Made by a program: the position numbers and the translations under genes
The notes under the pieces: model-generated
Told to the model about the DNA's origin: nothing
The model's database searches: none
What the model saw: the letters and a program-made list of their open reading frames with translations, nothing else
Part shown: piece by piece, positions 11,693 to 14,600 of the stretch
Numbering within the stretch: the first letter of the stretch is position 1
How the letters are laid out: every line of letters starts with the position of its first letter
Assembly (NCBI RefSeq): GCF_055900595.2
Contig: NZ_CM148325.1
Reading direction: 5' to 3' (one strand)
DNA: 64,000 nucleotides

Positions 11693-14600
11693 TTACGCCT
11701 TCTCGATGTTGACTAAGAACGCTTTATATTCCGGCGTTTGCGAGTTTGCATCACCGACATTCGGCGTCAGAGTGTTAGCGATATAACCTTTACGCGCGAC
11801 ACCCTCAAAGCCCCAGTGGATTGGAATACCCACCGTTTCAACCTGCTGACCGTTTACATTCAGTGGTTTCAGACGGCGCGTTACCACAGCCACCGCGCGG
11901 ATAAAGCCACGCTTGCTGGAGACAGTGACACGATCGCCATTGGCAATGCCTTTCGCCGCCGCCAGCGTTTCGCTGATTTCCACAAACTGTTCCGGCTGAG
12001 CAATTGCGTTGAGCAACGCGTGCTTGGTCCAGGTGTGGAAGTGCTCGGTCAGACGGTAGGTCGTACCCACATACGGGAACTGCTCTTTTTTACCCATCCG
12101 CAGCGCGTCTTGTTCATACAGACGAACCACCGGGTTAGACACCACGTTCGGATGCAGCGGGTTAGTGCCCAGCGGCGTTTCAATTGGCTCGTAGTGTTCC
12201 GGGAACGGACCTTCCGCCATTTTGTTGATGGCAAACAGGCGTCCCATCCCTTCCGGCTGCATGATAAACGGCCCGGTTGGCGTACCCGGTGCGGCATTGC
12301 CGAAGTCCGGAATATCGTTACCCGTCCACTTGCTGCCGTTCCACTGGATCAGCATCCGTTTCGGATCCCACGGTTTACCGTTGATATCCGCCGAAGCACG
12401 GTTGTAGAGTACGCGACGGTTGAGCGGCCACGCCCAGGCCCATCCCAGCGTATTCCCCAGACCGGACGGGTCGGAGTTATCGCGGTTGGCCATCTGGTTG
12501 CCCTGCTCTGTCCAGCTACCGGTGTAGATCCAGCAAGAAGATGCGGTTGTACCGTCATCACGCAGATGCGCAAAGCTACTCAGCAACTGACCTTTTTTCG
12601 CAATCAGCACGCCATTAGCGTCATAGAGATCTTCCAGCGCATAGCCGTTGTTCTCTTTTGCCACTTCGTCTGACTGCGGCTCGTGCGGCTGCTTGTAGTT
12701 CCAGCTCATCTTCATCAGCGGTTCTACACCTTTACCACCTTCGGCTTTGTACAACTCGCGAAGATGATGGTAGATACCCGCCAAAATTTCGCCGTCGTTA
12801 CGTGCTTCGCCTGGCGCGTCCTGACCTTTCCAGTGCCACTGCAACCAGCGACCGGAGTTAGCGATAGAACCATCTTCTTCAGCAAAGCAGGTCGAAGGCA
12901 GACGGAATACCTCTGTCTGAATAGATGCCGGATCGACATCGTTCGACTCGCCGTGGTTCTGCCAGAAAGTTGAGGTTTCAGTCACCAGCGGATCGATAAC
13001 CACCATGTACTTCAGCTTGCTCAGGCAGCTCACCACTTTGTTTTTGTCCGGGAAGGACGCAACCGGGTTAAAGCCCTGGCAGAAATAACCTGTGACTTTG
13101 CCTTCATCCATCATGTTGAAATACTTGATGACGTCGTAGGTCTGGTCCCACTTCGGCAGCCAGTCGTAGCCCCAGTTGTTCTCTTTCTGTGCGGCATCGC
13201 CGTAGAAAGATTTCATCAGGCTGACAAAGAACTTCGGATAGTTGCTCCAGTAGTTCACCTGATCAGCCAGCGTCGCTTTCGGCGTGTTCGCTTCCAGATA
13301 CGACTGCAAATCAACCTGTTTTTCTGACGGCAGCGTCAGATAACCCGGCAGGCTGGTAGAGAGCAGTCCTAAGTCAGTCAGGCCCTGAATGTTGGAGTGA
13401 CCACGCAATGCGTTCACGCCGCCACCGGCCATACCCATGTTACCGAGCAGTAACTGGATCATCGCCATAGTACGGATGTTCTGCGCACCCACGGTGTGCT
13501 GCGTCCAGCCCAGCGCGTACAGGAAGGTGGTGGTGCGATCCGGTGCGCTGGTGGAGGCCAGCACTTCACACACTTTCAGGAAGTCGGCTTTTGGCGTACC
13601 GCAGATGTTTTCTACTACGTCCGGCGTGTAGCGGGAAACGTGCGCTTTCAGCAGGTTCCACACACAGCGCGGATGAGTCAGTGTTTCATCGCGTTTCGCA
13701 TAGCCGTTTTCATCGAACTGATAGTTCCAGGACGACTTATCGTATTGACGTTTTTCAGCGTCATAACCGCTGAACAGGCCGTCTTCGAAAGCAAAATCAT
13801 CACGCACCAGCAGGCTGGCGTTGGTGTAATGCTTAACGTATTCGGCGTTGATTTTGTTGTTTTCGATCAGGTAGCGCAAAACGCCAGACAGGAACGTAAT
13901 GTCCGTACCGGAACGAATAGGTGCGTAGATATCCGCAACAGAAGCGGTACGCGTAAAACGGGGATCGACAACGATCAAGGTTGCATCGTTGTTGTTTTTC
14001 GCTTCCATCGCCCAGCGGAAACCGACGGGATGCGCTTCAGCAGCGTTACCGCCCATCACCATTACGACGTTAGCGTTTTTGATATCCACCCAGTGGTTGG
14101 TCATCGCACCGCGACCAAATGTTGGAGCAAGACTTGCTACCGTTGGTCCGTGTCAGACGCGCGCCTGGTTGTCTACCGCCAGCATCCCGAGGGAGCGGGC
14201 AAATTTTTGAGTCAGCATCCCGGTTTCGTTGCTGGCACCGGAGGCACACAGCATACCGGTAGAAAGCCAACGGTTTACCGTTACGCCCTGCTCATTCTTT
14301 TCAATAAAGTTAGCGTCACGGTCTGCTTTCATCAGCTTCGCAATGCGGGAGAATGCTTCTTCCCAGCTAATGCGCTGCCATTTGTCAGAACCTGGCGCAC
14401 GATATTCCGGATAGCGCAGACGGTTTTCGCTGTTCACGTAATCCAGCAATCCGGCCCCTTTCGGGCACAGCGCACCACGGCTTACCGGATGATCCGGGTC
14501 ACCTTCAATGTGATAAATCGCTTCTCTGGCGTTTTTCGCGCCATCACCCAGGCTATACATCAATAGCCCGCAACCTACGGAACAGTATGTACAAGTGTTA

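Follow-up and report, generated by a model that had tools for sequence, protein, structure and literature searches.

A TGA codon inside fdnG

Does the TGA that lies between two long open reading frames (ORFs) on the minus strand of this DNA end a gene, or is it read as selenocysteine (Sec), with a bacterial SECIS element in the RNA that follows it? The question was raised by a sequence-only reading of the window, by which we mean the whole 64,000-nucleotide stretch of DNA that was analyzed. That reading had placed the TGA in frame at 14155..14153, and both the coordinates and the sequence it quoted were exact. We consider it about 98% probable that the site is a selenocysteine recoding site (UGA plus SECIS) of E. 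coli fdnG. The gene and the codon are located as follows:

14740..11693, minus strand: fdnG, formate dehydrogenase-N alpha subunit (1016-codon frame; TIGR01553; single RefSeq CDS; PDB 1kqf)
14155..14153, minus strand: probable selenocysteine codon UGA, Sec196 (sequence; 'X' at 196 in PDB 1kqf_A; homologue codons)

When 14740..11693 was translated on the minus strand, it gave 1016 codons, with codon 196 as the sole internal stop. The codons before the TGA are ...CAG GCG CGC GTC, and those after it are CAC GGA CCA ACG GTA GCA AGT CTT GCT CCA ACA TTT GGT CGC GGT GCG ATG ACC. As the sequence-only reading had stated, naive ORF calling breaks the gene at this point: the ORF listing contains 14153..14740 (195 aa, with this TGA as its stop) and 11693..14104 (803 aa), the latter beginning at an internal ATG and sharing its frame with the 195-aa ORF. 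Any gene caller that takes TGA as a stop breaks fdnG into the same two pieces, and the site needs a Sec annotation (transl_except), as RefSeq already has.

The gene is fdnG, encoding the formate dehydrogenase-N alpha subunit, as had been proposed. With Cys put in at position 196 of the query, the NCBIfam equivalog profile TIGR01553 matched FdnG at 1622.5 bits (cutoff 814.2), covering residues 2–1014 as a single stretch, and a twin-arginine signal, SRRQFFK, was present at the N-terminus. RefSeq has a single fdnG CDS running through the TGA both in E. coli NZ_CP098223.1, which is 99.9% identical, and in K-12 (b1474). Compared with K-12 fdnG, the window gene has 77 differences in 3048 nt (97.5% nucleotide identity) and its product has 5 in 1015 residues; none of these falls in or near the SECIS. 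The protein encoded after the TGA aligned with residues 197–1015 of PDB 1kqf chain A, and a query spanning the site placed position 196, the TGA, opposite the non-standard residue 'X' in 1kqf_A.

The codon in homologous genes

Homologues were collected by scanning one genome per species with a peptide-derived pattern, GGNGCNATGACNAAYCAYTGG (G-A-M-T-N-H-W), located 15 codons downstream. The scan covered Gamma-, Beta- and Deltaproteobacteria, Firmicutes, Chloroflexi, Nitrospirae, Actinomycetota and others, and yielded 120 loci, 117 of which could be assessed at the aligned codon. At these 117 sites, the codon aligned to the window TGA was TGA in 114, TGT in two, TGC in one and no other codon in any, a distribution to be read with the scan pattern in mind, which may favor Sec-type genes. 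The reading frame runs on past the aligned codon in every homologue. Since the homologues carry either TGA or a Cys codon and the frame continues in all of them, we take codon 196 not to be a true stop.

Alternation of Sec and Cys at codon 196 is what would be expected of a selenoprotein active site. The three Cys homologues were without the hairpin described below, and a search of the Cys-containing Shewanella homologue with the Rfam SECIS models gave no match.

The alternative is that the TGA is a genuine stop, in which case fdnG would be a nonsense pseudogene, or the locus would hold two genes of 195 and ~800 aa. TGA is normally a stop codon, and ORF calling does give two ORFs. This explanation is hard to reconcile with the retention of TGA across distant phyla and its replacement by Cys in the remaining sites, with the 820 downstream codons, which are in frame and fully conserved under an unbroken TIGR01553 match, and with the crystallized protein of PDB 1kqf, a single chain of 1015 residues that has a non-standard residue at position 196. 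Within the species, 5385 of 5433 E. coli records have a 141-nt region containing the site at 99% identity or more, which also speaks against a stop; this conservation partly reflects low within-species divergence. Taken as an explanation of the site, a true stop is vanishingly improbable.

For the SECIS itself, conservation within the species carries no information, because the 143 nt around the element in which the window and K-12 do not differ are not exceptional in the gene: four other stretches of fdnG match or exceed this length.

A SECIS element directly downstream of the UGA

A bacterial SECIS has been defined by an in-frame UGA in a long conserved frame with a stem-loop directly 3' of it, and the consensus has a small apical loop in which a G at the first or second position precedes G or U, at 16–37 nt from the UGA (PMC13188914). 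At the present site, the UGA is codon 196 of 1016 and pairing starts 0–1 nt after it. The loop, G-U-C or, with the closing A-U pair open, A-G-U-C-U, lies 18–19 nt after the UGA and agrees with this consensus. A search with Rfam models delimited the element:

14158..14100, minus strand: predicted bacterial SECIS, full SECIS_3 extent including the UGA

The match to SECIS_3 (RF01989) scored 84.3 bits (gathering score 63) and spanned model positions 1–59 of 59, with an E-value of 4.5e-20 in a 2-kb search and 1.4e-18 in the whole 64-kb window. It was one of only two Rfam matches at gathering level in the 64-kb window. With this model, K-12 fdnG and fdoG score exactly as the window does, and homologues from Photorhabdus, Pseudomonas and Burkholderia are matched as well. 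The suggestion of a bacterial SECIS at the expected distance was thus borne out, both by the full-length match above the gathering score and by the 11 nt that lead to the stem-loop.

Membership in SECIS_2 (RF01988), the fdhF type, was considered and rejected: the window scored 28.8 bits against a gathering score of 70, while K-12 fdhF scored 87.1 bits with the same model. Judged by the covariance models, the window element is a member of the fdnG/fdoG SECIS sub-family, related to the fdhF type in architecture. A match to mir-129 at 14795..14828 (18.8 bits, E 1.6) was dismissed as chance.

The feature is already known, being the Sec196 UGA and SECIS of fdnG, with a sequence identical to that of K-12. 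The fdnG SECIS, described in 1991, is one of three classical E. coli SECIS elements. K-12 fdnG (b1474) resembles the window in the 66 nt around the UGA, in the 84.3-bit score, in the position of the UGA at codon 196, in the fdnGHI organization and in the flanking yddG and yddM; its locus is unlike that of the window, which has an IS200-family element downstream of fdnI. The window shows no departure from the classical description of the fdnG SECIS, and the value of the present analysis is that of an annotation check only.

Predicted fold of the element

The minimum free energy (MFE) fold of 14155..14100 consisted of two helices, at −14.6 kcal/mol, with these parts:

14141..14124, minus strand: upper stem-loop GGUAGCAAGUCUUGCUCC, presumed SelB-binding part (MFE fold; Rfam consensus)
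14152..14143, minus strand: predicted 5' arm of the lower helix, CACGGACCAA, directly after the UGA (fold; Rfam; homologues)
14118..14108, minus strand: predicted 3' arm of the lower helix, UUGGUCGCGGU (fold; Rfam; homologues)

The upper stem-loop is 18 nt long and begins 11 nt after the UGA. In the MFE fold, its helix is GG-U-AGCAA / UUGCU-CC around a GUC loop, with a bulged U at 14139 and the apical loop G-U-C at 14133..14131, in agreement with the Rfam consensus for the family. A hairpin had been expected here from the sequence-only reading, which identified it as GCAAGTCTTGC (14137..14127). The pairing it proposed, GCAA with UUGC around the GUC loop, is present in the MFE fold; these 11 nt are only the tip of a two-helix structure with the 18-nt upper stem-loop.

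The lower helix is less clearly defined. Two registers, that of the Rfam consensus and that of the E. coli MFE fold, were counted across homologues and gave 86.5% versus 82.9% of cells paired. The Rfam register leaves A-G and A-C mismatches in the E. coli sequence. This sequence is better paired in the MFE register, which suits it but does not suit the GC-rich homologues. The register is ambiguous, neither being clearly better over all homologues.

The folding energy did not distinguish the element from 200 dinucleotide shuffles of the same region (−14.6 versus −13.4 ± 2.7 kcal/mol, z = −0.45), 61 of the 200 being as stable. Because the MFE was no better than that of the shuffles, thermodynamics was not used as support for the hairpin.

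The arrangement of the upper stem-loop follows the rule, reportedly given by Liu et al. in 1998 for the fdhF minimal SECIS, that an upper stem-loop carrying a bulged U should lie 11 nt downstream of the UGA. The primary papers on the bulged-U, G-U-loop and 11-nt rules are those of Liu et al. 1998, Huttenhofer and Bock, and Yoshizawa et al. 2005; in the open-access literature, only indirect statements on these rules were found. Engineered SECIS constructs use the 11-nt placement, too (PMC8326192).

Covariation and constraint on synonymous sites

A hairpin within a coding sequence could also be a by-product of the peptide that it encodes. In this explanation, the pairing would follow from conservation of the peptide HGPTVASLAPTFGRG, without any RNA function, and the UGA would be read through independently of a SECIS. 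The peptide is indeed highly conserved and alone constrains two thirds of the nucleotides, and the folding energy, not above that of the shuffles, would fit as well. The third codon positions are where the two explanations diverge, and these were examined in an alignment (A1) of 42 distinct sequences of the H-(G/A)-P type, aligned with no gaps; the sequences are related and thus not independent of one another.

Across the 42 sequences, 91.5% of the cells of the Rfam structure were paired, versus 27–49% when the partners were slid, and the covariation score was 0.189, versus at most 0.074 for the slid controls. The upper helix was paired in 98% of cells. Two of its pairs change in a coordinated manner: pair 21:33 goes from G-C to A-U in eight sequences, with GUA/GCU and GUG/GCC as the corresponding codons, and pair 24:30 goes from A-U to C-G in eight sequences, with GCA/CUU becoming GCC/CUG. 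As columns 21, 33, 24 and 30 are all third codon positions, these are paired synonymous changes.

Other positions in the alignment do not change at all. In all 42 sequences, the bulged U (model position 20), the loop U and G18 are invariant. The loop U (U27) is the wobble base of AGU/GGU (Ser/Gly, NGU), and G18 is the wobble base of the four-fold-degenerate Thr codon ACG. Invariance at SECIS_3 model positions 49–59, the last 11 nt, arises by construction, as the scan pattern fixes them.

Joint change at the paired wobble positions and invariance at G18 and U27 both argue against a by-product of the peptide. So does the comparison with the paralogue fdoG, which shares 19 of 19 third positions with fdnG over codons 195–215, against 58.7% gene-wide, and so does the loss of the hairpin in the Cys homologues. 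Moreover, Berg, Baron and Stewart reportedly found in 1991 (JBC; cited in PMC13188914) that fdnG cannot do without the mRNA stem-loop for decoding of its UGA. We regard a mere by-product as very improbable. The covariance-model match, the covariation and the conservation at synonymous sites together show that the SECIS at fdnG goes beyond chance.

Identity with the fdoG element

E. coli fdoG, encoding formate dehydrogenase-O, is like the window gene in having Sec at codon 196 and a SECIS_3 match of equal score, and unlike it in being a paralogous gene at another locus. Both paralogues are found in every E. coli genome, with a median of two places per genome. Overall, fdnG and fdoG of E. coli are 74.4% identical in nucleotides and 77% in amino acids, and their longest identical run, which starts 3 nt before the UGA, is 71 nt, the next longest being 35 nt. 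The UGA and the 60 nt downstream are base-identical between the window, K-12 fdnG and K-12 fdoG, as are, more widely, the 66 nt around the UGA. A comparison with the SECIS elements of fdoG and fdhF had been proposed in the sequence-only reading, and it supported the assignment: fdoG is identical over these 66 nt, and fdhF has the same architecture, with an 11-nt spacer.

One explanation for this identity is recent gene conversion between the paralogues, rather than selection on the RNA. A perfect run of 71 nt in genes that are 74% identical, together with the presence of both paralogues in every genome, would be consistent with such an event. However, the same nucleotides are conserved, with covariation, in distant genera where exchange with E. 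coli fdoG is impossible. Conversion would in any case bear only on the cause of the identity between the paralogues, not on the nature of the element, and it might contribute; as the explanation in place of selection on the RNA, we consider it unlikely.

The 71-nt identity also takes in nucleotides outside the paired regions and the SelB-contact loop. The SECIS segment might be constrained beyond SelB binding, either through recurrent gene conversion or through a second function of the exact sequence, for example tuning of ribosome pausing or of competition with RF2 at the UGA; we offer this as a speculative suggestion with a low chance of being right.

Relation to other formate dehydrogenase SECIS elements

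The SECIS of fdhF, which encodes formate dehydrogenase-H, is the experimentally dissected bacterial SECIS. In K-12 it starts, like the window element, with UGA CAC GG.CC and has an 11-nt spacer followed by a GGU.GCA.GUCU.GC.CC stem-loop; the sequence after the spacer is GGUUGCAGGUCUGCACC, with a bulged U and a G-U loop, as in the window. Both elements lie within coding sequence for a ...U-H-G-P-(T/S)-V-A motif. They differ in that the upper stem of the window element is one base pair longer and in the sequence of the lower helix. Unlike FdnG, the fdhF product is cytoplasmic and has its Sec at codon 140.

The periplasmic formate dehydrogenases of the Desulfovibrio type (PDB 6sdr, 8cm4 and 1h0h) are like the window gene in having a UGA at the homologous codon and a hairpin at equal offset, and unlike it in the sequence of that hairpin, which is of the GCGGCUCUGGCAGAGUC type. 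A representative of this type (L005) gave no SECIS_3 match at the gathering score.

Machinery and proposed mechanism

The UGA in fdnG reportedly encodes Sec, according to work by Berg, Li, Heider and Stewart in 1991 (JBC). In the mechanism that we propose for this locus, the codon-196 UGA of the fdnGHI mRNA would be read as selenocysteine and not as a stop. The mRNA directly 3' of the UGA would fold into the SECIS stem-loop, and its upper part, GGUAGCAAGUCUUGCUCC, would be bound by the C-terminal winged-helix domains (WH3/4) of the elongation factor SelB. Together with GTP and Sec-tRNA(Sec), the product of selC, SelB would compete with release factor 2 and bring selenocysteine to the A site. 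Sec196 would then serve as the molybdenum ligand in the active site of the respiratory enzyme, the periplasmic, Tat-exported formate dehydrogenase-N.

In the bacterial Sec pathway, as summarized previously (PMC13188914), SelB acts with GTP and Sec-tRNA(Sec) at the UGA, and WH3/4 of SelB binds the fdhF hairpin (PMC7590224). For the window gene, binding by SelB, insertion of Sec and its role in catalysis are probable from established knowledge (Berg et al. 1991, JBC 266:22380 and 22386, cited in PMC13188914; the 1KQF structure). Berg et al. reportedly showed SelB binding and selenium incorporation for the K-12 sequence, to which that of the window is identical.

No tRNA genes were found in the window, and selA, selB, selC and selD lie outside it. 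Among complete E. coli genomes, selB, with the overlapping selA, was present in 5425 of 5426 and selC in 5424 of 5426. At the level of the species, the source genome presumably has the Sec machinery (selA, selB and selC).

The fdnGHI operon and its surroundings

On the minus strand, fdnG is followed by fdnH and fdnI:

10796..11680, minus strand: fdnH, formate dehydrogenase-N beta (Fe-S) subunit
10150..10803, minus strand: fdnI, formate dehydrogenase-N gamma (cytochrome b) subunit

All three genes had HMM matches above the cutoffs. For fdnH, TIGR01582 scored 482 bits (cutoff 335), in agreement with the RefSeq annotation. The match of fdnI to NF007558, at 485.8 bits (cutoff 339), begins at residue 15 of the mechanical ORF; the RefSeq CDS is 654 nt. 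Since the Fdh-N profile outscores the Fdh-O profile on fdnI (486 versus 270), the operon is fdn and not fdo.

Of 5426 complete E. coli genomes, 5425 have the 3.1-kb fdnG region, with 99.9% identity in the best match. From tehB to ddpA, the window and E. coli NZ_CP098223.1 are colinear at 99.93–99.97% identity, one IS200 insertion aside, and the flanking genes yddG and yddM are common to the window and to K-12 fdnGHI.

The insertion is an IS200/IS605-family element at ~9394..10097, with fdnI on one side and the higB/yddM toxin-antitoxin pair on the other. It contains a Y1 transposase ORF and matches the IS200-associated Rfam family STnc490. The element is not in NZ_CP098223.1, the closest genome, and the same site is occupied in 306 of 5426 E. 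coli genomes.

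Conservation of the SECIS region in formate dehydrogenase genes

The fdnG gene was compared with its K-12 paralog fdoG, which encodes formate dehydrogenase-O. Overall identity between the two genes is 74.4%, yet they have in common a run of 71 nt without a single mismatch (window 14088-14158, fdnG nt 583-653), beginning 3 nt upstream of the selenocysteine UGA; the second-longest identical run is 35 nt. Within codons 195-215, all 19 of the synonymous third positions are identical between the paralogs, compared with 58.7% gene-wide. This local identity could result from constraint on the RNA, from gene conversion, or from both.

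Deltaproteobacteria, Chloroflexi and Nitrospirae have homologous periplasmic formate dehydrogenases (L005, L006, L010, L024, L032 and others) whose genes retain the UGA at the same codon. At the offset where fdnG has its hairpin, these homologs have another, highly conserved one of different sequence (…GUAGCGGCUCUGGCAGAGUC…), and the representative locus L005 gave no SECIS match at gathering level in Rfam. At the Candidatus Burkholderia verschuerenii locus (L008), a tRNA-Sec gene at 492-583 (Rfam RF01852, 68.5 bits) and a formate dehydrogenase gene bearing a SECIS at 11047-11105 are separated by about 10 kb.

fdnG and the window among E. coli genomes

In gene order (tehB ... narZYWV-narU ... 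fdnGHI ... ddpA), the window is colinear with E. coli Z0117EC0005 (NZ_CP098223.1), to which it is 99.93-99.97% identical. Only 8 of the 5434 E. coli records have an fdnG that matches the window's at 99% identity or more, with the remainder at 95-99%; the window thus derives from a minority E. coli lineage.

Plasmid records in the E. coli set hold 7 or 8 fdnG-like copies (example record NZ_OZ547001.1, 266,732 bp), one of which is 90.4% identical in the SECIS region. Among the 5426 complete genomes, fdnG/fdoG were missing from one; selB, counted separately, was also missing from one.

Mobile element and toxin genes near fdnGHI

The following features were identified downstream of fdnI:

9394-10097, IS200/IS605-family insertion sequence of about 704 nt, separating yddM/higA (9103-9387) from the fdnI stop codon (10150)
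9496..10005, minus strand, Y1_Tnp transposase ORF of this element (Pfam PF01797, 126 bits)
9964..10087, minus strand, match to the Hfq-binding RNA STnc490, within the element (Rfam, 146 bits)
8825..9103, plus strand, HigB-like toxin (PF05015)
9103..9387, plus strand, HigA/YddM HTH antitoxin

NZ_CP098223.1, otherwise 99.9% identical, lacks the insertion sequence; of the 5426 complete E. coli genomes, 306 have it annotated at this site. Because the element lies about 50 nt beyond the end of fdnI, it might influence the 3' end of the fdnGHI operon or its terminator. The toxin and antitoxin genes form a pair (8825-9387, plus strand) that is convergent with fdnGHI.

Predicted RHS and type VI region

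The gene content of window positions ~32900-41500 was assigned by correspondence with positions 23295-33053 of the annotated relative L127. By homology to this relative, the stretch is predicted to lie between ansP and yddH and to contain the following:

within ~32900-41500, type VI secretion Vgr protein and DcrB-related protein
within ~32900-41500, RHS-repeat toxin, 4.6 kb
within ~32900-41500, orphan RHS/toxin fragments and a SUKH-4 immunity gene
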